A stretch of DNA of 64,000 nt from an uncultured virus (IMG/VR IMGVR_UViG_3300025769_000004) (lineage: Duplodnaviria; Heunggongvirae; Uroviricota; Caudoviricetes; Crassvirales). The notes under the pieces are model-generated. The model saw nothing but the letters and a program-made list of their open reading frames with translations. It searched no databases and had not been told where the DNA came from. Made by a program: the position numbers and the translations under genes. Shown here one piece after another: positions 18,993 through 46,278 of this stretch (position 1 is its first letter; each line of letters begins with the position of its first letter). The stretch is from the IMG/VR virus record IMGVR_UViG_3300025769_000004. The stretch is one strand, 5' to 3'.

Positions 18993-21900
18993 ATGTACAA
19001 ATTTAACGACAAAACTTATACGACTGAAGCATTAAGTAATATTGCTAGCGTAAAAGGATATTCATTAGACGAATTACTTGCTAAAAACCCAAGTATAGTA
19101 TTAGAAGAAAATGCAGTTGATGATGAAAACACTGATGAGTCGGGAAAGCCAACAGGTGTTCAGGAAAAATCCAATGTTCCTGCAGCACCAGTCAATACGG
19201 TTTCCGATTCGGAAAACACTTCATTGGATACTCCTACGCAAGACAAGCCAGTACCTGTAAAGGAATTACTAAAGCTTCCTAAGAACGATTGGAAACAAGA
19301 GAATTGGGATGAGTGGATAGTAATGCTGGAGAATGAAGGTAGTAAAGAAGCGAAAGAAAAAATAAAAGAATATAAATTTGCTAAGGAAAATTATTTAATA
19401 TATAACCCACAAGGCAAAAAAAGATTTGAATTAGTAGAAGATGTAAAACCTAGTGATCCAACACAAAGAGATTTAGATATAGCTAGCGGTGGGACAAGTA
19501 GTGTTATTACAATGGCTAATGCTTTAGTAGCAGGAGAAAACGGAGAGTTTTTTGAAGAACAAAACTATAGATTAACAAGAACTCCTTCTTTCGATTTTGG
19601 AAGACAACGTTACCAAGAGCTATATGAGAAGAACTATAACTTAGAAGAAGTAGACCCTATAGATGACGAGTGGATGCGTTCATATAGAGATAAGAGAAAA
19701 GCTATAGCGGATGAAGATGCTGATTTAGAAAGTGTGTATTTAACGAATCAAAAGGAACTACTACAACAAGCGTCTTTTGAAAGTTTCTTAAGACCTACAT
19801 TAACAAACACATTAAATGGGCAAGAGTCAGATGAATTAACAACTTCAGGTAGCTTCCAAGACGATGAAGAAACTGTATTTAATAGATCAAATTCTATAAA
19901 CACGAATAGCTTAGCATCGTTAAATTATTTATCTAGACCTGATGATGGATCTTTACTAACAAGTGAAGGTGATAGTTTCTGGCAAGAGGTAGAAATGCCT
20001 TCTGGTTTTGGAGAACTCATAGAGGGATTAAGATCTGGAGAGATAAAAGAAGTATCTCAAGTGGGTCAAGAAGATGGATTTTTTGATGATGAGGTTAACG
20101 TAGTAATGAAAGATGGAACTACTAAATCTATGCCTGTGGGAGACATAGGAGAATTTAACGATGCTATTCTTAAAGCTTATAACGCACCACAAAATCAATG
20201 GATATTAGATGGTGACGCAAACCTAGGTGGTCAGAAGACTAGATTCAACGTATTGAAGAGTAACTACGACTTATTGAATGAATACACCGTAGACATAGAT
20301 GATAAGAAGAAATTAAATAATCTAGTAAAAGCTGAAAACATAATATTAGATGAAGAAGATATTATAGCAGAAACATATCTAAAAGGTGAGTATAAAAAGC
20401 TTCATGAAGAATTAAAGCCTATACAGGATCAAATAAGAGCTATTGGATTAAAAGCTAAATCAAATGAAGATTTTAGAAATGCAGATGCTAACAGGAACAA
20501 TATACAAGATTGGGTAGAGCAAAAGCAGAAATTAGTTGAAAGTTATAATCAGAAAAGAAGTGAACTTGATTTTAACAGCTCTGAAAACTGGGATCAAAAC
20601 AGGTTAAAAAGTACACCTAAATTATATGATCTAACTACTGGTCAATTTATAGATAAAAACAAAGCTTCAAAGGAATCTATTGAGATAAACAACGGTATTA
20701 ATTTCGCTGCTCAAACATTATCTTTTAATAGCGAACCTGCAGATTTAGAAAGAGCTAGGCATGATGCTATGAGTGAAGTTGTATATTTAGGTGGTCAACT
20801 GTTAAAAGTTATTGACAGGTACTCTGAAGATATGAGTATGGGAGATCAAATTGCAGGAGCGTTTGTTGGAGGATACGATCCAGAATCAGACATAGATCAA
20901 ATTGTTGATAGAAAGTATTTGTTTGAAAAGTTAAGGGAGATGTACAATACTGGTATTATACCAGAAGGTTTAGTTTTAGCTGAAGGAAAAAATAATCTAG
21001 CAGCACAGCGGTATAACAAGGCATTGCAAGACTTTATGGTTATCAATAAAGCTCTAGAGTTAAATATTGATGAAAGAAAACTAAAAACATCGCACTGGAC
21101 TGATTATTTAGCGGCTGGTACTAGAGATGTTATGGGTACATCTAATATATCAGAGCCAAATGAAATAATAAAAGCTGCTATGGAAGGTTATCAAAGGTTT
21201 GGTATAATGCCAGACTACGATGATATATATACTATGGCAGACATAGACAACCCTGGTTATGGTGAAAGATTTCTTAGAGCAGCTCCAGGTATAATAGAAA
21301 TGGCTGGAAAATTTTATCTAGCTGGTGGAGCAGTTAGCAGACTATCTAGTTCTGCTGGTATGACTGAAGGTTTAGGTTCTTTTATTACAACTGGATTAAA
21401 CCAAACTAAGATGGGTAGATCTATGTTTGGTAGAAGATGGACGCAAATGATGGGAATGGGCGTGCAAGAGGCTGCTACTATAGGTGGTTATAACATGATG
21501 TCTTCAGATGAGCAAGATATAAACTACGCTTTTGTACTAGGTTCTGCACCAATAAACTCATTATATAAAGATTTTTTAAAGTATTCTCATGGCTTAAGTT
21601 TAGTAAAGCCGGACAAAATATCAAACATGTTAGCTAAAGGGTTTCAAAGAAATCCTTTAACAGCAACCGGTGTAAGACAATTAGTAGCTCCTGCAGTATC
21701 AACAGTGGCAATTGCTGGAGGTGGACAAGTAGAAAGCTTAGTGCTAGGTGAAGGAGTTAATCTAAATGCTCTGTCTTTTGAAAGTTTGTCTGATACATAT
21801 CTTCAAATGTTTTTCTTAAAAAATATTAATCCACAAGCCACGATAGGTGAATGGAAAACGGCTTTGATGAAGAACTTAGCTAAGAAAAGTAAAACATCTA

Positions 21901-24900
21901 CTGAAGTAATAAAAAGTCTAAAACAAACTGATTTAGTTCCAGAAGGTAAGAAAACATTAACAGCGGAAGATATAGACGCTTTAGATCCACTAGAAATAGA
22001 AAAGAGCAAAGAGCGTGGGGTTAACGAAATACTAGGAAAGGGAGAAGAAACAGTTCCATCAGTATTAAATCAAAATAGTATTGAAAGACCTATCTTTAAT
22101 GATGCAAGAAATATTAAGAGTGAAAAAACTATGGACTATAGTGGTCCTTTAAATGATGGTTTTAAAACTCAGCATCCTGTTACTGGAAAAACTATCATAG
22201 TAAATGAAGCACAGTTAAAAAAATTAGAAAAACTAAATAAAGCTTATAATAACATAACTGGTTTTAAAACGTATCAGACCATATTAAACATGGAAGATGC
22301 ACTAAATGGTCTAAACACTTATATAAACGACGAGAGCGTTCCTATGCTTATGAGAATGGAGTCTGGTAATTTAACCGCTACAGACATAGATGTTCTTGGA
22401 TCTGCTAATTCTTTGAATGAAGCTTTTTCTGCTAAATTTAAAGAATTAAACCCTAGCCCTAATGTACAGGGTCAAGTAGATAGAGTACTACAAACTCTTA
22501 AAGCACAGCAACCTGTTTTTGAAGCAATAGTACAAAACGCTAGATTATTTCCTAAAGGAGAAAAATTAGGTGAAGGTGGTAAAAGAAACACTTTCATTAA
22601 CCTATCGTATGGCAATGCACAACTTAGAGGTAAAATAGCTAGTATAGAGGCTAAAGTTAAAGCTCAAGACAAGCTTAACGGTGGTGCTTCAGCAGCTGAT
22701 AAACTTGAGATTCAACAACTTAAAGAAACTTTAGTAGAATTAGAAGCTAAGGAAATGAAAATGTTAACCGTTCAAAAAGCTATAAATAATCTAAAAGTAG
22801 AAAGAGCAAAGAAACTAAGTAAAGAATATACTGAAGATATAGGTGGGGAAGAAATGGAAGTAGAAGTTCTTGGACCAAAAGAATTTTCTGAAAGAGGAGA
22901 TGAGTATAAACCTAAGTTTATAACTGACAAAGGAGAAATGATTATTGAAGACGTCGTAGATGTTGATAAGGTCAAAGGTTCTAAAGGTCTAGTCATGAGT
23001 AGTGAAGGTGAAGTTTACATGGACGGTAAGAAAGTTGATGGAAAAGTTTCATGGAAAGAAGGTGTTTCTGTAGATGGCGGAGGTATGATTATAAATGAAA
23101 TGTGGGCTAAGAAAATAAATGCTCCTACAGTATTTACTCATGAAATAACACATAAGATTACTGATAAAGCTTGGAACAATATATCTAAGGAATCTCAAGA
23201 TAAAATTGTAGAGGGATTTGTGGAAAACATAAAAGGTGATATTGATCCTTTAACTTTTATTAAATTAAAAAACACTGTTGAAAAACATAATGGTGGAAAA
23301 ACATTTAATGAAAATCCTAACACTGTTGAATGGATAAACATATTCCATGACATGGTTGGGAAAAATGAAATAACTTTTGAGAAAAATAAAGGTTTGTTTA
23401 AATCTTTAGGTTCAACTATAGAAAGAGTATTAGGTACTGGTAAAAGTGAATTTGAAAACATGGATTGGAGTAATCCTAAGCATGTGTATGATTTTATAAA
23501 AGATTTTAGTATCACTACTGAAAAAGGTAAAAAGAGTGATAACTTTATTCAAGAGTTTAAAAGACTTAAAGCTTTAGAAAATGACCAATATTTATCAGAA
23601 GACGTAGAGCTAGAAACTTCCTCAGGTAATTATTCTGCCACAACAAATCCTCAAAAGCTTGCTTTAAGTTTAATACCTAAAAGTAAAGCTAAAGCTGAAC
23701 CACAAGAAGTTGCTAAAGTTCAAACTATGTTAGTTGAAGGAGTACCATCTATTGGTATTAATAAAGGTTTTAAGGATATGTCTACCAAAGAATTAATGGA
23801 AGCTAGAGATAAATTAAAAAACTTTAACATAAATAACAAGGAAGCTGATATATCTGTTAAAAAAGATAATAGCTTAGGTATTCAAAGTATTAATAAGTTA
23901 TTGTCTGATCCTCAAAATGCAGTCAACGTTTTATCTATTGAAGGTAAACAAAGAGTAGCAGATGGAGATAGTCCATTAACAGTGGCTTTTGAAATGGTTG
24001 GTTCTTATAATCCAAATAACCTTAGCGCGTTAGGGCCAATGGGTAGAAGATACGTAGATTTAATAAAATCTAGAGCAGATGATATAGACAGAAGATATAA
24101 CTTGCCTGGAGCTAAAAAGTTGTTTAACACTGAAGAATACATGCAATACATGTTTGGAGAAAAGCAGGGTTTAACTAGTATTGTTAAAACATATCTTCAA
24201 GGTAATGTTGAAAACACAAATCCTAACGGTTATATAAATGCTCAGTTAAAGAAAAGAAGTTATAAAGCTTTTGAAGATCATTTTGAAGGTGAAATCAGCC
24301 AATTTAAGTCTACTGATGATACTAAAAGTATGGCTAACGAATCTAACATTGTAGAATCAAGTCAACCAGAAATAGTAATAGAAACTCAAAAACCGGGTGA
24401 GCAAGGTAGAACAATTTACACTAAGTCAGGCGTAATAGATACAGAGAAACTTGGTGAAGTTCAAGATGCAGTTGTTAGATTAGGTATGGGTAATACTACT
24501 CTTGATACAAAAATAACTGGTGGATCAATAGGTAAAGGAGAAGGAAAACAAAATGACATAAACAATATAGATAAAACTGTAGTTGATAAATTTACAGCTG
24601 ACATAAAGAAAAAAATGGGTGGCGGTAATAAGTATATTGATTTTATTAAAAATAATCAAGACTTACTAAACAATATAGATTTAGATGTTTTGACTAAGTT
24701 TAATATGTTTCCTTTTTATGAAGCTAAATTAGGCGCTGATGGTAAACAAATTAGAATAGAAACAGTTAAAGGTAAATCGCAACCGTTACAGTTTAAAAAG
24801 AAGATACCTACTATTGAAGAAATACTATCATGGGTAAACGCTGAAGGCAAAGCTCCATCTACTAAAGGTACTAGAAAAGATGCTTTAGCTAGAGCTATAG

Positions 24901-27900
24901 CAATACGCATGGGTAGAGATATAGCTATGGACGCTCAAAGCAGCGCAGCTAATACTGGTGGATTTGTTCCTAAGATTAACTCTAAAGGAGAATACACTTA
25001 CACTAAGTATCCAGTTGAAAAAGAAGTATTATCAGATAGAAAGATTAAATCAGGAGATATACCAAAGAGTGGTGTATATTTTTCAGCAGATGGTAAAAGT
25101 GTTTTTGTTAATGGATTAGAAAGACCTATTGATGGAACTGTTGTAAAAGTTAACACTAATAAGAATGGTGTTCCAGAATCTATAGACATTGCGGAGTCTT
25201 ATGACATATATAGAGACTTAAATCCAGCAGAGAAAGCTGATGCTATGCTAGAAGGTTCTTTGAACTCGATTGGCTTTAGATTAAAAAGAGATCCAAATCT
25301 TAAATTTGCTTCAACAACTAATGATGCTACTGGTTTACTAACAATATCAGAAGCTACGGAACAAGTAGGTAATTTAGCTAGAGATATTTTAAACTTAGAT
25401 CCATCAAAGAAAAATAAAGTAGATATACTAGAGTATGTAGACATAAATTATTCTAAGCTAAATAAAACTCTTAAAGATAACGATATAGAGTTGCTTAATA
25501 TAATAGATGATGCCATAAATAGAAGTATATACTCTGATAATAAAGTAGAAAAACTAGAAGGTGATTTGGTAGAAGGTGGCAATTACCCTAGATTAGCTCA
25601 AGATTTAAATGAAAGATACGAAAAATATGGAAGTGGTCATATAATATTGAATGCTAGAACACAAAGTGGTAAGGGTAGTTGGGCTGATAATCCTATAGAA
25701 AAAGCTCAATTTGGTAACACTCTTTATGGAGCTTTAACAGATGTAAATATGGCTGGTCTTATTGAAACTCAAGCTCTGTATCAGAGTATGGGTTTTGGTA
25801 ATTTTAAAATAATAGGTCCAGACGGTACAAGTAAAAGACTAGGTACTTGGATTCCAGGTGAAAATAAATCAGAAAAAATAGCTAATGCTTGGAATATGCC
25901 TGGAGAAATTGGAGTCACAGGCGAGGGTAAACTACCTAAAGATGTTGACGCGTTTTTTATAGCTAGTCCTGGTAAGATACAAGCTGATCCAGTTTTAGTT
26001 AAAGGAGAAAAAGTAGTTGTAGAAATAGATGGAGTTAAACAATACAAGTATAAGCCAACAAGTATCCAAGGTTTCTTTCAGAAACTAGCTTTAGAAGGAA
26101 AACTAGAAAACGGTAGAATTACAGATCCTGCTGATATAAAGGAATATACTACTATGTTGAAGACTAGGCTAACTAAACAAGGGATTAATCCTTATACGGA
26201 TAAGCCTTACACTTTTGAAGAGACAATAGCTGCAAACAAAGCATTGTCAAATAGAATGTATACATCGTTATATAATCAATTAAGTAATGTAACTTTAACT
26301 CCTGCTGAAAAGAAAGCTGGAGTAACAGTAGAGCAAAAAGAGAGTAGAATAGCTAATGATATTTTCTCTTGGATGCGTATGCAGACTAATATAGGTGAAG
26401 GTATTGCTAAAGGAAGTTTCACGATTACGACTGCTCCTTTAGAGTTAGGTGCTTATGTTCCAACTAAAAACCTAGAGAGCAAAGGCTATGATCCATATGC
26501 TTTCAAAAGAACACACTCTGAGCATCATATACCAATGGGTGTTGTCAACGGCAATGTTATGGATCTAATGGTTAGATATAAAAATAATCCTAAAAAATTC
26601 AAACAAGAGTTAACTAAGTTACTTGACAGAGCAGAACAAGGTATTATAACTGTTGATGCACAAAGATGGGCTGATAACCCGCTTAATAGAGGAGCGATGA
26701 AAATTGGTCCTTATGACACTGATCTCAATCAATTCGCAACAATGCCATGGAGTATCGAAAGATTATCAGGTACTAATTATTTACAACCATTAGACATTCA
26801 AATTGATTTAAGAAATGGATCTCCTTTAAAAAGCACATTGGTTGAAGAAGGAGTAGGTAATATTATAAAACCATATGTTGAAGAAATAAATAAAAATTCC
26901 AATGAAATAAATGAAGGATCTTTGGAAAATCTGAAGCGTATAGAAGATGTAAATACAATCTCTCAGAATATAGTTCAAAACGAATATATCCCTGAAAACA
27001 AGCTAGAAGTTCCTGAAAATCCTACTGAAGTTGCGGAAACAGAATTAACTACAGTAAATAAAATAGCAGGAAATCCAGAGATAAATAAAGTTCACAAAGA
27101 TAGTGAATTAAATTTACAAAAGCTAGCTGAAGAAAATGGTATAAACTATTCAGCTGTTCCACTAGAAATACAACCTTCTTCTGCGGTTTACAATCAAATA
27201 AAAGTTAGAGAAAAAGCTATTGAAATGGCTAATAGAACTAATGCGCCAAAAAAGAAAGTATATTTGTCAGATATAGATGATTCACTTTTATATACTGATA
27301 GTAGGATAGATGTAACAATGCCTGATGGTAAAACATTTAAAATAAACCCTAAAGAATTTAATGAGGATGCTGGTAAGTATTTATTAGAAGCTCAGCAAGA
27401 AAATCCTAGTTACACTGCGGCTGATTTATTTAGCTTTGGAGAGTTTGGTGATTTTAAAAATGCTAAAAAAGCAAAAGCTTATAAAGTAGTAGAAAGAATA
27501 TATGATAAAAATATTAAACAAGGAAAAGATGGATGGGATGGCTTATATTTCTTAACATCTAGAAAGGGAGATATGGCTACAGCTCTAGCTTTTCAATATA
27601 GGTTAGAACAATTAAGTGGTGGAAAATTTAAAGTACCTTTAGACCATTACATTGGAGTAGAAAGTTCTGATCCAGCAGCTAAAGCTAATTACGTAGATGT
27701 GTTTGCTTCTCTTGGTTATAATGACTTTGTATTTTTAGAGGATGCAGCTCCTAACACAGCAGCATTTTCTAAAAGAGTAAAAGAGTTAGGTTTAACAGAT
27801 AGAGCTAGACCTATTAAAGCAAGTTCTACTTCTATAGAGCAGAATCAATTCGATAACATGATACAGCATAGCTCTGGTGTAAAGGCTGATGCAAGGTATT

Positions 27901-30005
27901 CGGATGCTAATGTTAAAAAAATATCTCCATCAGGGAGAAAACTATTACCATACAACACTTACAATTACCAACAGTTAATTCAAACTATGGCTGGTAAAGG
28001 TAAGCAAGGACTGATGGACTATGAGTATGTTAAACAGAAATCTTACGATACTTATAAAAGATCTGTTTCTGATCAAAACACTTTTGAAAGAAACTATAAC
28101 GCTGGTCTTAATACTGTTTTTAAAACATATAAAGATTTTAACAAAACACTGAATAACGAAGCTTTTAACGGCTGGACAGTTCAAGACGCCGTTAGAATAC
28201 AAGCTTGGAAACAACAAGGTATGGAAGATGTACCTGGTTTAAGTAAAAGAGATCTTGATGGAATAAATAAATTTATATCAGTTAATCCTGATGTAAGATC
28301 AATGGCTAATGAACTAGTAAGAGTTGGTGGCGTTGCAGGATATCACATGCCAAACTCAGCTGATTGGGTTATGGGTAACATACAAAGTGATGCTATGATG
28401 ACTGTTAATAAAAGCGCTAGAAAGTATTATCAAGATCTTAACGGATATACTAGCTTTGTTGATTCTTATTATACTCCGGAAAATTTAAACAAGTTAGAAG
28501 TAGCATACGGAACTAAATATAGAGTTGCTTTAGAAGATATGTTAAGGAGAATGAAGTCTGGAAGTAATAGACCTATAGGTGATAACTTTGGACTACAAGG
28601 GTTGAATAATATAGTTAATCAAACGACTACAGCTCAATTAGCTTTAAACGTTGGGAGTGCTGTTAGACAAGGACAGTCTAATTTAAATTACATGTTTGAG
28701 CCTGGAAACACTCCATGGAAAGCTGGTAAAGCTTTTGCTCATCAAGGTAGATACTGGAGAGAGACTATTGACTTATATAATTCTGATTATCTTAAATCGA
28801 GAAGATTAGGTAATAAAATCAATATAAGTGATGCTGAAATAACAGATGCTTTAAATGGATCTACTAATAAAGCTGGAGCGATCTTGAACCTGTTACTACA
28901 AAAAGGTTTAGTATTAAATAAGGGTATGGATTCATGGGCTCAAGCAAATGGGTTTGGAACTACTTATATGATGAACAAGACTAATGAACTTTTAGGATTA
29001 GACTATAGAGTCAATGGTCAATTATACGATATCAAAACTGGAGAAAACATCAAGGACTATAAGAAAGTAGAAGGTTATGAAAAAGCTCACGGCGAAGCAT
29101 ATTTAATGTGGCAAGAGCTAAGTAGTAGAACTCAGCAATCTAGTGATCCTGTAGAAACAGGAAGTATACAAACAAAAGTAGGTGGTAAAGCTTTTCTAAG
29201 TTATGGAACTACTTCTATGCAGAACTTGAGGCAAGCAAATATAGAGTTAAACAAGTATTTAAAAGGTTGGAATATTGAAAGCTTAGAAGACATAGAGAAC
29301 ATAGAAAATCCTCAAACCAGAAAAGAAATACTAGGTAAAGTATTTAATTACGGTATGCTACAGAACAGTGTTTATGGAGCATTAACAAGTGGGTTTACTA
29401 GTTGGTTGATTAGCGACGACACTGAAGAAGGAGAGATTGAGGATATAGCTTGGAGAATGTTTAATGCGGAGGTAGATGGCTTGCTAACAGGTTTTGGTGT
29501 TGGTGGAAAGATATTACTTGGTGGTAAAGAAGCTGGAGTTAAATTCTATAATCAATATGTATCTAATAAAAATGGGATGTTTAAAGATTATGAGGGAGCA
29601 GGTGATGAACTTTTAGGGTCAATGCCTTTCATAGGTCAAAAACTTGATCTATTCGACAACGCAGCATATGACTTGAAGCAGGCAGAGATGAAGAAAAATA
29701 GATTTAAAAGTGCATTAGACGATCCATTAAATGCGCCATCTGTATCAGCTGCTGCTAATATAATTCAAGGAACTACAGGTTTTCCAGCGAAGCGAGCTCT
29801 ATATGATAACTTTAAAATACTAGAATACATGTACGCGAAAGAAGGACCAGTGTTAGAAAAAATAGGAGTTGGTCTAGGCTTGATTCCTCTTTGGGAAACT
29901 GATCAAGCTAAAAATGAAAAAGCAAAGAAAAAATCACCAAATAAAAACGTGTTTAATGCAGGTTTTTCAAACGCAAAAGGTGGTGGAATGAACACCGGCT
30001 GGTAA
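18993..30005 (+). CDS. Giant (3670 aa) multidomain, probably virion-delivered polyvalent protein
   Basis: HEITH zincin motif at 23139-23153; HAD-like motifs DIDDSL (27270), FLTSR and FLED; located at the end of the ejection-protein cluster. Confidence 0.6.
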   Translation: MYKFNDKTYTTEALSNIASVKGYSLDELLAKNPSIVLEENAVDDENTDESGKPTGVQEKSNVPAAPVNTVSDSENTSLDTPTQDKPVPVKELLKLPKNDWKQENWDEWIVMLENEGSKEAKEKIKEYKFAKENYLIYNPQGKKRFELVEDVKPSDPTQRDLDIASGGTSSVITMANALVAGENGEFFEEQNYRLTRTPSFDFGRQRYQELYEKNYNLEEVDPIDDEWMRSYRDKRKAIADEDADLESVYLTNQKELLQQASFESFLRPTLTNTLNGQESDELTTSGSFQDDEETVFNRSNSINTNSLASLNYLSRPDDGSLLTSEGDSFWQEVEMPSGFGELIEGLRSGEIKEVSQVGQEDGFFDDEVNVVMKDGTTKSMPVGDIGEFNDAILKAYNAPQNQWILDGDANLGGQKTRFNVLKSNYDLLNEYTVDIDDKKKLNNLVKAENIILDEEDIIAETYLKGEYKKLHEELKPIQDQIRAIGLKAKSNEDFRNADANRNNIQDWVEQKQKLVESYNQKRSELDFNSSENWDQNRLKSTPKLYDLTTGQFIDKNKASKESIEINNGINFAAQTLSFNSEPADLERARHDAMSEVVYLGGQLLKVIDRYSEDMSMGDQIAGAFVGGYDPESDIDQIVDRKYLFEKLREMYNTGIIPEGLVLAEGKNNLAAQRYNKALQDFMVINKALELNIDERKLKTSHWTDYLAAGTRDVMGTSNISEPNEIIKAAMEGYQRFGIMPDYDDIYTMADIDNPGYGERFLRAAPGIIEMAGKFYLAGGAVSRLSSSAGMTEGLGSFITTGLNQTKMGRSMFGRRWTQMMGMGVQEAATIGGYNMMSSDEQDINYAFVLGSAPINSLYKDFLKYSHGLSLVKPDKISNMLAKGFQRNPLTATGVRQLVAPAVSTVAIAGGGQVESLVLGEGVNLNALSFESLSDTYLQMFFLKNINPQATIGEWKTALMKNLAKKSKTSTEVIKSLKQTDLVPEGKKTLTAEDIDALDPLEIEKSKERGVNEILGKGEETVPSVLNQNSIERPIFNDARNIKSEKTMDYSGPLNDGFKTQHPVTGKTIIVNEAQLKKLEKLNKAYNNITGFKTYQTILNMEDALNGLNTYINDESVPMLMRMESGNLTATDIDVLGSANSLNEAFSAKFKELNPSPNVQGQVDRVLQTLKAQQPVFEAIVQNARLFPKGEKLGEGGKRNTFINLSYGNAQLRGKIASIEAKVKAQDKLNGGASAADKLEIQQLKETLVELEAKEMKMLTVQKAINNLKVERAKKLSKEYTEDIGGEEMEVEVLGPKEFSERGDEYKPKFITDKGEMIIEDVVDVDKVKGSKGLVMSSEGEVYMDGKKVDGKVSWKEGVSVDGGGMIINEMWAKKINAPTVFTHEITHKITDKAWNNISKESQDKIVEGFVENIKGDIDPLTFIKLKNTVEKHNGGKTFNENPNTVEWINIFHDMVGKNEITFEKNKGLFKSLGSTIERVLGTGKSEFENMDWSNPKHVYDFIKDFSITTEKGKKSDNFIQEFKRLKALENDQYLSEDVELETSSGNYSATTNPQKLALSLIPKSKAKAEPQEVAKVQTMLVEGVPSIGINKGFKDMSTKELMEARDKLKNFNINNKEADISVKKDNSLGIQSINKLLSDPQNAVNVLSIEGKQRVADGDSPLTVAFEMVGSYNPNNLSALGPMGRRYVDLIKSRADDIDRRYNLPGAKKLFNTEEYMQYMFGEKQGLTSIVKTYLQGNVENTNPNGYINAQLKKRSYKAFEDHFEGEISQFKSTDDTKSMANESNIVESSQPEIVIETQKPGEQGRTIYTKSGVIDTEKLGEVQDAVVRLGMGNTTLDTKITGGSIGKGEGKQNDINNIDKTVVDKFTADIKKKMGGGNKYIDFIKNNQDLLNNIDLDVLTKFNMFPFYEAKLGADGKQIRIETVKGKSQPLQFKKKIPTIEEILSWVNAEGKAPSTKGTRKDALARAIAIRMGRDIAMDAQSSAANTGGFVPKINSKGEYTYTKYPVEKEVLSDRKIKSGDIPKSGVYFSADGKSVFVNGLERPIDGTVVKVNTNKNGVPESIDIAESYDIYRDLNPAEKADAMLEGSLNSIGFRLKRDPNLKFASTTNDATGLLTISEATEQVGNLARDILNLDPSKKNKVDILEYVDINYSKLNKTLKDNDIELLNIIDDAINRSIYSDNKVEKLEGDLVEGGNYPRLAQDLNERYEKYGSGHIILNARTQSGKGSWADNPIEKAQFGNTLYGALTDVNMAGLIETQALYQSMGFGNFKIIGPDGTSKRLGTWIPGENKSEKIANAWNMPGEIGVTGEGKLPKDVDAFFIASPGKIQADPVLVKGEKVVVEIDGVKQYKYKPTSIQGFFQKLALEGKLENGRITDPADIKEYTTMLKTRLTKQGINPYTDKPYTFEETIAANKALSNRMYTSLYNQLSNVTLTPAEKKAGVTVEQKESRIANDIFSWMRMQTNIGEGIAKGSFTITTAPLELGAYVPTKNLESKGYDPYAFKRTHSEHHIPMGVVNGNVMDLMVRYKNNPKKFKQELTKLLDRAEQGIITVDAQRWADNPLNRGAMKIGPYDTDLNQFATMPWSIERLSGTNYLQPLDIQIDLRNGSPLKSTLVEEGVGNIIKPYVEEINKNSNEINEGSLENLKRIEDVNTISQNIVQNEYIPENKLEVPENPTEVAETELTTVNKIAGNPEINKVHKDSELNLQKLAEENGINYSAVPLEIQPSSAVYNQIKVREKAIEMANRTNAPKKKVYLSDIDDSLLYTDSRIDVTMPDGKTFKINPKEFNEDAGKYLLEAQQENPSYTAADLFSFGEFGDFKNAKKAKAYKVVERIYDKNIKQGKDGWDGLYFLTSRKGDMATALAFQYRLEQLSGGKFKVPLDHYIGVESSDPAAKANYVDVFASLGYNDFVFLEDAAPNTAAFSKRVKELGLTDRARPIKASSTSIEQNQFDNMIQHSSGVKADARYSDANVKKISPSGRKLLPYNTYNYQQLIQTMAGKGKQGLMDYEYVKQKSYDTYKRSVSDQNTFERNYNAGLNTVFKTYKDFNKTLNNEAFNGWTVQDAVRIQAWKQQGMEDVPGLSKRDLDGINKFISVNPDVRSMANELVRVGGVAGYHMPNSADWVMGNIQSDAMMTVNKSARKYYQDLNGYTSFVDSYYTPENLNKLEVAYGTKYRVALEDMLRRMKSGSNRPIGDNFGLQGLNNIVNQTTTAQLALNVGSAVRQGQSNLNYMFEPGNTPWKAGKAFAHQGRYWRETIDLYNSDYLKSRRLGNKINISDAEITDALNGSTNKAGAILNLLLQKGLVLNKGMDSWAQANGFGTTYMMNKTNELLGLDYRVNGQLYDIKTGENIKDYKKVEGYEKAHGEAYLMWQELSSRTQQSSDPVETGSIQTKVGGKAFLSYGTTSMQNLRQANIELNKYLKGWNIESLEDIENIENPQTRKEILGKVFNYGMLQNSVYGALTSGFTSWLISDDTEEGEIEDIAWRMFNAEVDGLLTGFGVGGKILLGGKEAGVKFYNQYVSNKNGMFKDYEGAGDELLGSMPFIGQKLDLFDNAAYDLKQAEMKKNRFKSALDDPLNAPSVSAAANIIQGTTGFPAKRALYDNFKILEYMYAKEGPVLEKIGVGLGLIPLWETDQAKNEKAKKKSPNKNVFNAGFSNAKGGGMNTGW

Positions 30006-38167: not shown

Positions 38168-38899
38168 TTATAGGGTTTTATTGATAAAATATTGCGAAGA
38201 GTCAAACTCTTCTGTGTTATAAAATAAATCGTATACTTCTGATGCTTTCTCAACCTTCTCTTCACCAGTTTTATAAAAACTAGATGAACAATCGAATAAG
38301 CCTATTTGACTTGTATTTTTATCTATTGCTATAAATATAAACTCATAGCCAAATAACTTACTGTAAATGTATGCTTGAGAATCGTAATTGTATTTCTTAG
38401 CATTCCATTTAAAGTTGTCAAGATCAGACGTTGTTTTGAGATCTATTATTAATTTTTCGTTATGATTAACTATATCGGCTTTACCTTTCCACATTTGACC
38501 GTAGAGCTCGGTGATAGCAGGTACTTCATATTCGCCTTTTTCTTCTGCGATGAGGTCTCTGCAAACCTTGTTATTCATAAGTGTATTGACTAAAGCTTCT
38601 GTTCTGTCAACTTCGTGTTGTAACAAACACATTTCACCACCAGACATTTCTTTATATACCTTAGTGTTTCTGCTACTTGAATCAACAACTTTAAAATTCT
38701 TAATTTTGTTTGGTTCTAATATAGCAGTGTGAAAATAGCCTCCTACTAAGAAGTGGGCATTTGTCTTACTTGGTTCTTTTAGCGCCAATGGATTTTTAAG
38801 TAATGTAGATATATCTGAGTTACTTAAGTATTGTTTGCCAAAGTCTCCGTAATAATGCTCATCGATTCTAAGCTTGTCTATTATCTCGTCTTTTTTCAT
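38168..38899 (-). CDS. RecE/ExoVIII-like PD-(D/E)xK exonuclease (DUF3799-like)
   Basis: LSNS, G..FHTAILEP, KGKAD, IIDLKTT, YDSQAYIY. Confidence 0.8.
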   Translation of the reverse strand: MKKDEIIDKLRIDEHYYGDFGKQYLSNSDISTLLKNPLALKEPSKTNAHFLVGGYFHTAILEPNKIKNFKVVDSSSRNTKVYKEMSGGEMCLLQHEVDRTEALVNTLMNNKVCRDLIAEEKGEYEVPAITELYGQMWKGKADIVNHNEKLIIDLKTTSDLDNFKWNAKKYNYDSQAYIYSKLFGYEFIFIAIDKNTSQIGLFDCSSSFYKTGEEKVEKASEVYDLFYNTEEFDSSQYFINKTL

Positions 38900-39423
38900 A
38901 GTGTTAGCATTTCTTCATGCTTTTTTGTAACAACGTATTTAGCTTTGATAGCGTCTAGACTACCGCCTTTGTTAATGTATTCCTTGGCTTTAGCTAAAGA
39001 CTCATTGGTTAGTTTTTGTTTTGCGGCAGTTGCTTTGCCGTGTTGGTTGGTTGCATCTGAATCTTGAGTGTCATCAATCAAGAACAGATTACCAAGTGCA
39101 TACTTTTTACCATATGAACTTGCAGCGCCATATCTCTGTGGCATTTGCATACCCTTTTGATCAAGGTCAACGCCTACTACAGCTTTAGAGTTTATTGAAT
39201 CTTTACCATCAGATATTTTAGCAGTAACCTGCATAACTGGTGGGTCAAATGATACTAGCTCTTCATCTACTGTCACTGTAACGTTTAGCTCCTTTAAAAA
39301 GGGTTTTGTTGCTTCGAGAATGTCTTCGGCAGAACGGAAGTTGTACTTGCCGAAAGAGTTAAATCTTGATTTCTTTGATTTGAACTCAACTTGGATTTTT
39401 GATAATTTTTCGTTAATTGTCAT
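38896..39423 (-). CDS. ERF-family ssDNA annealing protein
   Basis: KYNFRSAEDI and GAASSYGKKYALGNLFLIDD.QDSD. Confidence 0.85.
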   Translation of the reverse strand: MTINEKLSKIQVEFKSKKSRFNSFGKYNFRSAEDILEATKPFLKELNVTVTVDEELVSFDPPVMQVTAKISDGKDSINSKAVVGVDLDQKGMQMPQRYGAASSYGKKYALGNLFLIDDTQDSDATNQHGKATAAKQKLTNESLAKAKEYINKGGSLDAIKAKYVVTKKHEEMLTL

Positions 39424-44935: not shown

Positions 44936-45379
44936 TTATCTATTAGTAATCGTATTTAGTTTGTAACATAATTGCTTAATCTTGTTATACTGCAACTCTG
45001 ATATTTCAAAGTTGTTAAGCGAGCGAGTTAAATAACGCTCTGCAATATCTTTGTCAACATCTAAGTAGTCGATGTAAGTTTTACCTATGTGCTCGAACAA
45101 ATTGTCATTACCTACATAAGAGGTTGAGCATCCATCGTACTGATATTTAGTTTTACGTTGACTTGAGCCTTTAGTAATAGCTCTGAGTGTACCGAAACCG
45201 GCACGTTTTGTTAGTTTTGATGCTTGATCTGCATCACTACGTGACATTACTTGAATAGTATTGCCAGTTTTGTGGTTTATAGTATCGATACAGCCGAGTT
45301 TTTCTTCTGTAGAGCACTCGATGCAAGTCGTGTAGCCGAGTGCTAGTCTTTGTTTTGGTATATTGTGCGTACATTTCAT
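44936..45379 (-). CDS. Protein with TraR/DksA-like zinc-finger N-terminus
   Basis: MKC..NIPKQRLALGYTTCIEC. Confidence 0.5.
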   Translation of the reverse strand: MKCTHNIPKQRLALGYTTCIECSTEEKLGCIDTINHKTGNTIQVMSRSDADQASKLTKRAGFGTLRAITKGSSQRKTKYQYDGCSTSYVGNDNLFEHIGKTYIDYLDVDKDIAERYLTRSLNNFEISELQYNKIKQLCYKLNTITNR

Positions 45380-45410: not shown

Positions 45411-45767
45411 TTAGTTTGTAATATTTTTCATTACTTCATATAGTATATCTCCATGGTGTTCATGATAGAATTCAAACCATTCATCTTCAAACTGCTCATA
45501 ACCTGCTTCAGTTAAGTAGTTTTGTGATTGGAATACGTAGTGATTACCCATCTCGGTGCATACTTTTTCAAATATTACATCAGACAAATGTCTGGTTATC
45601 TTATCTACTATTAGTATTTTAGCTTCTTCGACAGGATCTAGTGGACATCTATTTTCTTTCATTTCTTCTGAATTATTCGCTTTGTCAGCCCATTGTTCAT
45701 AATCATTATTACCTGTGTAATACTCTTTAGTTTGCCTTATTTCATTCATTGTTCTTTCCTTCGCCAT
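45411..45767 (-). CDS. Hypothetical early protein
   Basis: 118 aa; stop codon lies inside a promoter repeat. Confidence 0.55.
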   Translation of the reverse strand: MAKERTMNEIRQTKEYYTGNNDYEQWADKANNSEEMKENRCPLDPVEEAKILIVDKITRHLSDVIFEKVCTEMGNHYVFQSQNYLTEAGYEQFEDEWFEFYHEHHGDILYEVMKNITN

Positions 45768-45870
45768 AATTCTTGTGTTTAGTTTTACGTGTATATTTCT
45801 TTTTATTCTTTTCTACTGAAGGCTTCATAGCATCGTATATCTCCTTCATTGTTACTTTTATTATTTTCAT
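45742..45870 (-). CDS. 42-aa basic ArfA-like peptide (not in ORF track)
   Basis: MKIIKVTMKEIYDAMKPSVEKNKKKYTRKTKHKNYGEGKNNE. Confidence 0.55.
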   Translation of the reverse strand: MKIIKVTMKEIYDAMKPSVEKNKKKYTRKTKHKNYGEGKNNE

Positions 45871-45872
45871 AG

Positions 45873-45986
45873 AGCGAGAGAGAGGATTCGAACCTCTCAT
45901 GTCTAGAACAGTTCAACTAACCACATAAGATTGCTGATGTGTTAAAGGTATCATCTTAATACCAATTAGTTCTACCTGACCTCGCT
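45873..45986 (-). ncRNA. tRNA-like structured RNA (acceptor-like stem plus T arm, non-canonical interior)
   Basis: AGCGAGG/TCTCGCT terminal stem, GAGAGG-TTCGAAT-CCTCTC T arm, TAGAAC/GTTCTA stem enclosing two further hairpins. Confidence 0.65.
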
Positions 45987-46134
45987 GTCCAAGTTGAGCC
46001 GTCACTCAACCCCACTGTTTTTCTCCGGTGTAAAGTGTTTGGAGTCGTGGTTTAATTAAAGAAGTGTAAGAGTAGTTTCGCCGTCCAGACTCTATTAGTG
46101 GTTTGCATTTAAGCCGGTCACTTCTTAATTTGTT

Positions 46135-46278
46135 TTAATTTACTACAAAAGTTAAACCTTTGTAATTGAACCATGAGTTACACTCTTCAGGTATGCTGTC
46201 TATAGTGTAACCTTTTACTTTCTTGCCGTCTAGCTTGATCACTGATCTGTTGCTAGGATAAAATTTAATTGTTTTCAT
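46135..46278 (-). CDS. Small early protein (not in ORF track)
   Basis: 47 aa MKTIKFYPSNRSVIKLDGKKV...; ATG 3 nt after a promoter repeat. Confidence 0.6.
   Translation of the reverse strand: MKTIKFYPSNRSVIKLDGKKVKGYTIDSIPEECNSWFNYKGLTFVVN

Follow-up and report, generated by a model that had tools for sequence, protein, structure and literature searches.

We describe a very short gene on the minus strand of a 64,000-nucleotide stretch of DNA (the window) from an uncultured virus, IMG/VR record IMGVR_UViG_3300025769_000004. The gene begins where a structured, tRNA-like RNA ends, its stop codon overlaps the start of the following gene (Table 1), and its product, MKIIKVTMKEIYDAMKPSVEKNKKKYTRKTKHKNYGEGKNNE (42 residues), is a basic and very lysine-rich mini-protein whose C-terminal half resembles the ribosome-rescue factor ArfA. 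An earlier note on this DNA, made from its letters alone, had placed an ArfA-like reading frame at 45742..45870, and the frame is found there as it was drawn. The listed open reading frame (ORF) 45742..45900, of 52 residues, merely extends this frame to an ATG farther upstream, within the RNA; the N-terminal methionine of the 42-residue form is the conserved start.

The small ORF is a genuine, conserved phage gene. The same ORF is present in related viral contigs, and over its first 33 codons ten DNA-level homologues differ 130, 100 and 412 times at codon positions 1, 2 and 3, with 316 synonymous against 187 non-synonymous differences (counts from 45 pairwise comparisons, which are not independent of each other). 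The in-frame TGA is shared by the window and all nine DNA homologues. Of 115 candidates from a word-indexed search, 114 proteins have E<=1, all of them metagenomic and none with a functional name, and a profile search of 1.84 billion cluster representatives returned 210 at E<=0.001. It is this predominance of third-position change, together with the large set of homologues, that leads us to regard the gene as real. Five longer, fused forms were also found; they look like read-through of adjacent ORFs and are functionally uninformative. DNA and protein BLAST against 50,697 phage records gave no match for the region, the peptide or the downstream gene, a result that the low-complexity filter may explain in the case of the peptide. 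The nearest virus record (G001) does not cover the gene region, and the peptide has no match in NCBIfam.

An ORF that arose by chance, or a short leader that serves only to regulate the downstream gene, would likewise be very short, and the overlap of the stop with the next start and the absence of a Shine-Dalgarno sequence before the ATG might be taken in that sense. Nevertheless, phages of many types keep the amino-acid sequence while the DNA changes mostly synonymously, and the gene occurs with different downstream genes. Moreover, Bacteroidia ribosomes are described as making no use of Shine-Dalgarno sequences (PMC7797042, PMC6847099), so the absence of one is no objection to the gene. We consider a non-functional product highly improbable.

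The peptide consists of two halves (Table 1). Among 62 diverse family members the consensus reads MKxIxxTxQEIxxAxRPxVxKNKKKYTRKxKHK, and the window's own group has the N-terminal pattern MKxIxVTxxEIYDAM. Residues Y26, R28, K29, K31 and H32 are invariant in 25 close homologues, as is the presence of the motif Y-x-R-K-x-K-H to which they belong; in the 62 diverse members the motif is nearly invariant. There is no long C-terminal tail, just as the earlier note stated. In an AlphaFold2 model built from the alignment of 62 sequences, residues 8-15 are a predicted helix that leads directly into an extended stretch at 16-29 (mean predicted local distance difference test score 79.7, predicted TM-score 0.32). 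ArfA has its elements in this order too, helix 15-24 preceding strand 27-30. Compared with the PDB by Foldseek, the model has one match, at E 8.6, which is unusable; for a peptide that, as modelled, would fold only on its target such a lack of structural matches is expected.

ArfA (YhdL; PF03889; PDB 5MDV, 5H5U, 5U4I, 5MGP) is found in gamma- and some beta-proteobacteria and is likewise a small, basic protein. When a profile of the 25 close homologues is compared with 177,635 distinct PDB sequences, ArfA chains are the top match at E 0.039, and with a profile of the 62 diverse members the match improves to E 0.0034 and 20.4 bits. Family positions 22-51 align to E. coli ArfA 26-58 with a single gap of three residues opposite ArfA G-K-G. 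In this alignment P17-E20 of the peptide are paired with Q27-E30 of ArfA, M15 with F25 and K31-H32 with K44-H45; the peptide's V-E-K-N-K-K ... Y-x-R-K-x-K-H lies along ArfA 29-45, a segment that includes the KH motif and the RF2-docking strand, with Y-x-R-K-x-K-H itself opposite ArfA 39-45. The tools thereby reproduce the ArfA alignment of the earlier note, in which GKGS is reduced to K. Profile-to-profile comparison by hhalign gives P 3e-4 and a probability of 40% against 15 enterobacterial ArfAs, and P 2.3e-4 and 44%, over 27 columns, against 30 diverse ArfAs. The latter were taken from 37 ArfA-positive genomes among 401 Pseudomonadota, a contig scan having given Enterobacteriaceae alone. 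A protein atlas offers no more than a lead, a 46-residue cluster with Pfam ArfA on 23% of its members (score 0.89, rank 12).

The earlier note had allowed that lysine bias alone might account for the similarity. Shuffling of the alignment columns retains composition and conservation and destroys order; the real core scores 21.6, against a mean of 8.5 for the shuffles (standard deviation 1.8, maximum 14.4), and none of 300 shuffles reaches the real score. The likeness is thus order-specific and not compositional. In a six-frame scan of one whole E. coli genome with the family profile, the single match at E<=10 is arfA. The same profile gives 13 matches at E<=0.05 in the 401 Pseudomonadota genomes; arfA accounts for each of the best five, and the eight further matches, with E 0.009-0.028, fall within the roughly 20 expected by chance. 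On these grounds lysine bias can be set aside. We find it very probable, as far as sequence comparison can tell, that the C-terminal halves of the peptide and of ArfA share ancestry; residues 13-38 are, judged by the alignment, homologous to the part of ArfA that gives the RF2-docking strand and the mRNA-channel loop ending in Lys-His.

Two short ORFs in Pseudomonadota genomes, L239 (G026) and L232 (G386), have the tails ...RPSVKPSARAYSRKPKHK... and ...KDKTKYNRKDKYK...; their matches to the family profile are weak (per-genome E-values 0.028 and 0.009), and they may represent this superfamily in bacteria. Several proteobacterial ArfA frames (L133, L134, L139, L142, L144) end in ...AA (LMAA, LLAA, SKAA), which recalls the ends of ssrA tags.

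A comparison with both ArfA and BrfA had been recommended in the earlier note, and its outcome is divided: the ArfA side is borne out by the top PDB matches and by hhalign, the BrfA side is not. Attachment to an empty mRNA entry channel by way of basic residues is reported for Bacillus BrfA as well as for the basic tails of SmpB and ArfB (PMC8012679). Among the PDB matches of the two profiles at E<=10 (8 and 7, all of them ArfA chains or designed coiled coils) there is no BrfA, SmpB or ArfB chain, and no Pfam family of BrfA, SmpB or ArfB type is matched by the peptide, its close homologues or the 62 diverse relatives.

The relation to ArfA also runs through intermediates encoded by other phages. 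When phage records were searched by tblastn with E. coli ArfA, 12 were matched. Of the four with Salmonella names, two are bacterial contigs; the remaining eight records belong to phages that infect Pseudomonas (three records), Ralstonia, Erythrobacter, Pseudoalteromonas, Roseobacter and Citromicrobium. The genes of the Pseudoalteromonas and Citromicrobium phages are annotated "alternative ribosome-rescue factor A", and since phage genes named ArfA thus already stand in GenBank, the word "undescribed" in the earlier note was too strong. The protein of Pseudoalteromonas phage J2-1 (ATN93434.1, 51 residues) has a full ArfA-type N-terminal half, lacks GKGS and ends in ...RVERDKTKYRRKKKHKNREEG. 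It passes the Pfam thresholds of both ArfA (41.3 bits, cut-off 25.5, residues 7-46) and DUF7230 (28.6 bits, cut-off 27, residues 26-50), and BLASTP aligns it to the window peptide without gaps at 14 identities in 26 residues (54%; E 1e-7 for this single comparison). On the other side, the protein of locus L248 (MAKKNPVFKFLNTVNRPSVERDKTKYRRKPKHK...) is a core DUF7230 protein (63.4 bits over positions 1-40) that shares 12 of 18 residues with the window peptide (E 3e-7) and, at E 8e-4, matches the mini-ArfA of Roseobacter phage CRP-212; this protein of 41 residues contains GKGS and exceeds the Pfam ArfA threshold with 33.3 bits.

From the double matches of the J2-1 and L248 proteins it follows that a C-terminal module is shared between ArfA, DUF7230 and the window family. 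Its pattern, as read from the alignments, is R/K-P-x-V-x-K/R-N/D-K-x-K-Y-x-R-K-x-K-H-K, and no fewer than three kinds of N-terminal half precede it; the window family is the group whose N-terminal half (MKxIxVTxxEIYDAM) differs from the others. Core DUF7230 proteins have another N-terminal half (MAKKNPVFKFLN...), so that the window group is their sister group. Against the DUF7230 model (PF23876, 42 positions, cut-off 27) the window peptide scores 26.4 bits, over positions 14-37 only. Two of six sequences, the peptide and its five close homologues, pass the threshold (27.4 and 27.6 bits); 50 of the 62 diverse relatives match at E<=10, and most of 147 representatives match below the threshold. 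The peptide also matches phrog_6310 (PHROGs v4, unknown function) at E 1.5e-5 and 25.6 bits, over positions 16-35 of 42. No mention of DUF7230 was found in a literature search.

Annotated phage ArfA genes (J2-1 ATN93434.1, Citromicrobium phage RXM USM11455.1 and pelagiphage HTVC027P gp30) likewise are phage-borne, encode 41-60 residues and have the same C-terminal motif. They differ in passing Pfam ArfA (29.6-41.3 bits; for HTVC027P as given in PMC12753301) and in having an ArfA-type N-terminal half; the window peptide does neither. The HTVC027P gene gp30 is described as an ArfA-domain gene transcribed both early and late in infection (PMC12753301). A functional test of any phage ArfA-like protein was not found in the literature, which was searched mostly without full texts. 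New here are an explicit chain of intermediates and a sister group with a distinctive N-terminal half, carried by phages whose host phylum lacks ArfA.

Two observations on annotation belong here. The CRP-212 mini-ArfA ORF (L240, record 38885-39380) is unannotated and lies inside an annotated gene of 3.6 kb, gp38, which makes it either an overlapping gene or a sign of over-extended annotation. The product of gp99c of Salmonella phage Arash (L246) scores 68 bits with the ArfA profile and yet is annotated "ribosomal protein L2", probably a mis-annotation.

The gene lies within a run of some 35 small leftward ORFs, at about 41-50 kb, in which no family match was found except for a DNA ligase and a DNA-binding protein further down. 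The window has a G+C content of about 33%, and its structural proteins are closest to those of podophages of Flavobacterium, Cellulophaga and Maribacter. As these are the hosts of its nearest cultured relatives, the host is probably a marine member of Flavobacteriia. The ORF of 3,670 residues at 18993-30005 (plus strand) has no Pfam match at E<=0.01, and the label of an N4-like phage, which had been derived from it, was dropped. According to Table 1 of PMC11633108, arfA occurs in none of 1,956 genomes of Fibrobacterota, Chlorobiota and Bacteroidota, whereas smpB, ssrA and arfB are common there; the window gene differs from bacterial arfA in sitting in a phage whose likely host belongs to that ArfA-less phylum. 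RF2 exists in F. johnsoniae (PMC10798248).

In ArfA itself, a short helix (residues 15-24) lies at the decoding centre, RF2 opening depends on A18 and residues 1-14, and the looped C-terminus fills the entry channel for mRNA by means of basic contacts that are redundant; the KH motif, the sole similarity with BrfA, occupies a pocket of the channel (PMC8012679). With this division in mind, our preferred reading, to which we give a probability of about 0.45, is that the early-region gene encodes a 42-residue basic protein related to ArfA which would bind host ribosomes with an empty channel and help in their rescue. The peptide would attach to host ribosomes with no mRNA in the channel downstream of the P site, a state expected of those that have translated a cleaved or decaying message to its very end. 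It would then help to free the stalled ribosomes, probably by recruiting the host release factor, and the freed ribosomes would stay available for phage protein synthesis. The phage would in this way supply a rescue activity to a Flavobacteriia host, a group without known arfA. The steps are not equally firm. Binding to ribosomes with an empty mRNA channel is, we think, probable. Recruitment and activation of a release factor is a tentative step and more doubtful than binding, because the activating half of ArfA has been replaced. The earlier note had offered the alternatives of a rescue factor or a channel binder; the C-terminal 26 residues, related to the strand and channel part of ArfA including KH, make one or the other of these putative roles the best reading.

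A number of results weigh against this reading. The claim of an ArfA-like peptide does not extend to membership in the Pfam family: PF03889 (cut-off 25.5 bits) is matched by none of six sequences (the window peptide and five close homologues) and none of the 62 diverse members at E<=10, and by none of 147 representatives at E<=1. Our own profile of 30 ArfA sequences gives the peptide 7.0 bits and E 0.4, though this is its top match in the window, and the hhalign probabilities of 40-44% are modest. In the reverse direction, the family profile scores 20-24 bits on ArfAs of the enterobacterial type and about 0.6-4 bits on the most distant ones, so that the link to ArfA rests on one ArfA subtype and on the intermediates. 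The most conserved ArfA motif in the 30-sequence alignment, GKGS, is missing: K-G-K-G-S-Y is invariant or nearly so in the 30 ArfAs, and the peptide has K-K-K-Y with a gap of three residues. At the other end the peptide is about 10 residues shorter, and its first 15 residues have no detectable likeness to ArfA 1-24, as both hhalign and HMMER align the C-terminal half only. Since this is the region that contains A18, becomes ordered on RF2 opening and is required for activating hydrolysis, its replacement makes release-factor activation doubtful. ArfA and RF2 furthermore function only within their own species group (PMC8012679), while the host phylum here is one without ArfA. Finally, the gene is dispensable, an accessory gene: it is missing from the near-complete related contigs G403, G404 and G409 and from three more distant phage records, in a test whose positive control found the gene in four of four contigs known to carry it.

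The gene also differs from bacterial arfA in its control. It has an ordinary stop codon; no minus-strand terminator-like site was found, and the predicted folding of the ORF region is no stronger than that of shuffled sequences (z -0.18). With a normal stop and no internal hairpin or terminator, a non-stop mRNA would not be formed, and control by trans-translation, the hallmark of bacterial arfA, is therefore inapplicable.

Because the ArfA-like part is confined to the ribosome-binding half, and the RF2-activating half is replaced by an unrelated, strongly conserved sequence, one may imagine that the peptide plugs the channel without rescuing anything. It would sit in the entry channel of free 30S subunits or vacant 70S ribosomes, recruit no release factor, and block the loading of host mRNA or compete with tmRNA-SmpB and ArfB, as a device of shut-off or against quality control; the positions of ArfA and of the SmpB and ArfB tails in the channel do overlap (PMC8012679). 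On the other hand, the stretch aligned to the RF2-docking strand (ArfA Q27-E30) is retained as P-S-V-E, phage proteins with the full ArfA N-terminus bear the same GKGS-less C-terminus, which suggests one common activity, and a general plug would halt phage translation too. We consider a mere plug rather unlikely.

Gene context was surveyed in the best 80 of 183 confirmed matches in viral contigs (loci L148-L227), from a scan that gave at least 183. In 32 of the 80 the family gene has a portal-like ORF on one side and a capsid-like ORF on the other, and it overlaps a scaffold-like ORF read in a different frame. Such a place in the structural-gene block does not point to translation and has to be added to the points against a role in ribosome rescue. 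It would agree better, as would the high lysine content, with a general nucleic-acid-binding peptide, DNA- or RNA-condensing or virion-associated, that overlaps the 5' part of the scaffold-like ORF and whose ArfA-like motif would reflect a shared preference for the RNA backbone, with no ribosomal role. Such a peptide would hardly explain why the match is order-specific in all 300 shuffles, why whole-genome scans pick out arfA and not other basic proteins, or why Y-x-R-K-x-K-H is so well kept in the diverse members; we judge it unlikely.

In many related podophage contigs, the part of the scaffold-like ORF overlapped by the family member is its acidic 5' part (for example, L207 1492-1629 inside ORF 1131-2423). 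A second lysine-rich small ORF overlaps the same scaffold region (L207 1312-1476; 8 loci).

The features around the window gene are collected in Table 1.

Table 1. Features of the small gene, its product and its surroundings in the window.
Feature	Position	Strand	Remarks
Small gene	45742..45870	minus	ATG at 45870, 42 codons (45745-45870), TGA stop 45742-45744
N-terminal half of product	residues 1-15		family-specific; predicted strand-like 1-7, helix 8-15
ArfA/DUF7230-like half of product	residues 16-33		KPSVEKNKKKYTRKTKHK
Downstream gene	45411..45749	minus	112 residues; likely ATG 45749 overlaps the small gene's stop (ATGAATGA); alternative in-frame ATG 45767
Upstream gene	46135..46278	minus	47 residues, unknown function; stop in some relatives right at the start of P1
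Structured tRNA-like non-coding RNA	45870..46010	minus	directly upstream of the small gene; last conserved base (A, 45870) is the A of its ATG
Hairpin P1	45993..46010	minus	6-bp stem, conserved loop TGACGG; both-side changes in 5 of 6 pairs, 11 copies
Variable-arm insertion, 56 bases	45918..45973	minus	absent from the closest relative, L001; skipped exactly by blastn of window against L001
T-arm-like hairpin	45881-45897	minus	AGAGG TTCGAAT CCTCT; invariant in 11 of 11 copies
3' strand of closing acceptor-like stem	45874-45879	minus	pairs with 45980-45985; invariant in 11 of 11 copies

The downstream gene has relatives in 11 viral contigs and no Pfam or PHROG match, and the overlap of its start with the stop of the small gene fits translational coupling. 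Beyond it, at 44936-45379 (minus strand), the window encodes a Cys-rich, zinc-finger-like protein of 147 residues (CxC...CxxC), again with no Pfam or PHROG match; a shorter, paralogue-like zinc-finger gene stands right after the RNA in relatives (L003, L027, L029, L002, L006).

The RNA upstream was confirmed as adjoining the gene, as the earlier note had seen: the ATG abuts its invariant 3' end, CTCGCTCTA. Eleven copies were aligned; they have an invariant core, and 99.1% of the cells pair in the proposed structure, with which minimum-free-energy folds agree. All covariation is confined to the first hairpin. As the closing stem and the T-arm never vary, pairing there is possible but lies outside the reach of covariation. 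The variable arm differs in length among all copies, the shortest having a few bases and the longest about 70. Phages whose flanking proteins share only 45-80% identity have RNA cores that are 100% identical. ARAGORN finds no tRNA or tmRNA gene in the window or in 22 related loci, and Rfam has no match at the gathering level in the window; the sole Rfam signal on the RNA is a tmRNA T-arm match (6.4 bits, E 2.4) over the T-arm bases. Going by these comparisons, the RNA resembles tRNA in the T-arm and closing stem only.

The earlier note went further and joined RNA and peptide into one module, directed against host defences that cut tRNA or mRNA. The RNA is carried by twelve loci (the window, L001, L002, L003, L004, L006, L022, L023, L027, L028, L029 and L150). 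The peptide gene abuts it in four (the window, L001, L022 and L023) and follows about 90 to 1,050 bases downstream in another four (L028, L004, L002 and L150); in the remaining four (L003, L006, L027 and L029) no peptide gene was seen in the examined flank, which in two of them is 600 bases only. Two family loci, moreover, lie inside tRNA gene arrays (L178, L213). These arrangements would speak for a module. When the neighbourhood survey proposed in the earlier note is made from the side of the peptide, a different picture emerges: the RNA occurs within 1.5 kb upstream in just 3 of the 80 family loci, against the 32 in the portal and capsid setting, and L018 has the peptide gene without the RNA. 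In 4 of 11 copies the RNA directly precedes other genes, zinc-finger-like (L003, L027, L029) or a hydrophobic mini-ORF (L028), and no gene related to RNA repair or defence lies nearby. A defensive module is thus very unlikely. Given the 3 loci with the RNA and the 32 in the structural block, the pairing is one phage lineage's gene order and not a module. A tight link of the peptide with ordinary tRNA genes, which had been expected, was rejected as well, such genes being found within 1.5 kb in 4 of the 80 loci.

The junction of RNA and gene permits one more proposal. The RNA end CTCGCTCTA runs directly into an ATG in 8 of the 11 aligned copies (the window, L001, L003, L022, L023, L027, L028, L029), and these ATGs belong to three unrelated genes: mini-ArfA-like in four copies, zinc-finger-like in three and the hydrophobic mini-ORF in one. 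Because one and the same RNA end meets the ATG of three unrelated genes, the RNA might be a processing signal. Host tRNA-end enzymes would cut its 3' end and give an almost leaderless mRNA that starts 1-2 bases before the AUG of whichever gene follows; here this would be a mini-ArfA that brings ArfA-type rescue into Bacteroidota by way of the host release factor and a new N-terminal half. Taken as a whole, we regard this as a long shot.

The importance of the locus is below what the earlier note had hoped, since the link with the RNA is not general and phage "ArfA" genes had already been annotated. The family is nevertheless widespread, with its 210 cluster representatives and with members in viral contigs of about 4 to 290 kb. 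Together with the intermediates it forms a natural series of variants, in which the N-terminus is first of the full ArfA type (with a tail that lacks GKGS), then of the core DUF7230 type and last peculiar to the window family; the series offers a ready way to tell the ribosome-binding parts of ArfA from those that contact the release factor. If the peptide does bind the empty channel, then a widespread phage family of "unknown function" would consist of minimal ribosome-rescue or ribosome-targeting factors. If our reading is true, phages would carry ArfA-type chemistry into hosts that lack ArfA, such as Bacteroidota.

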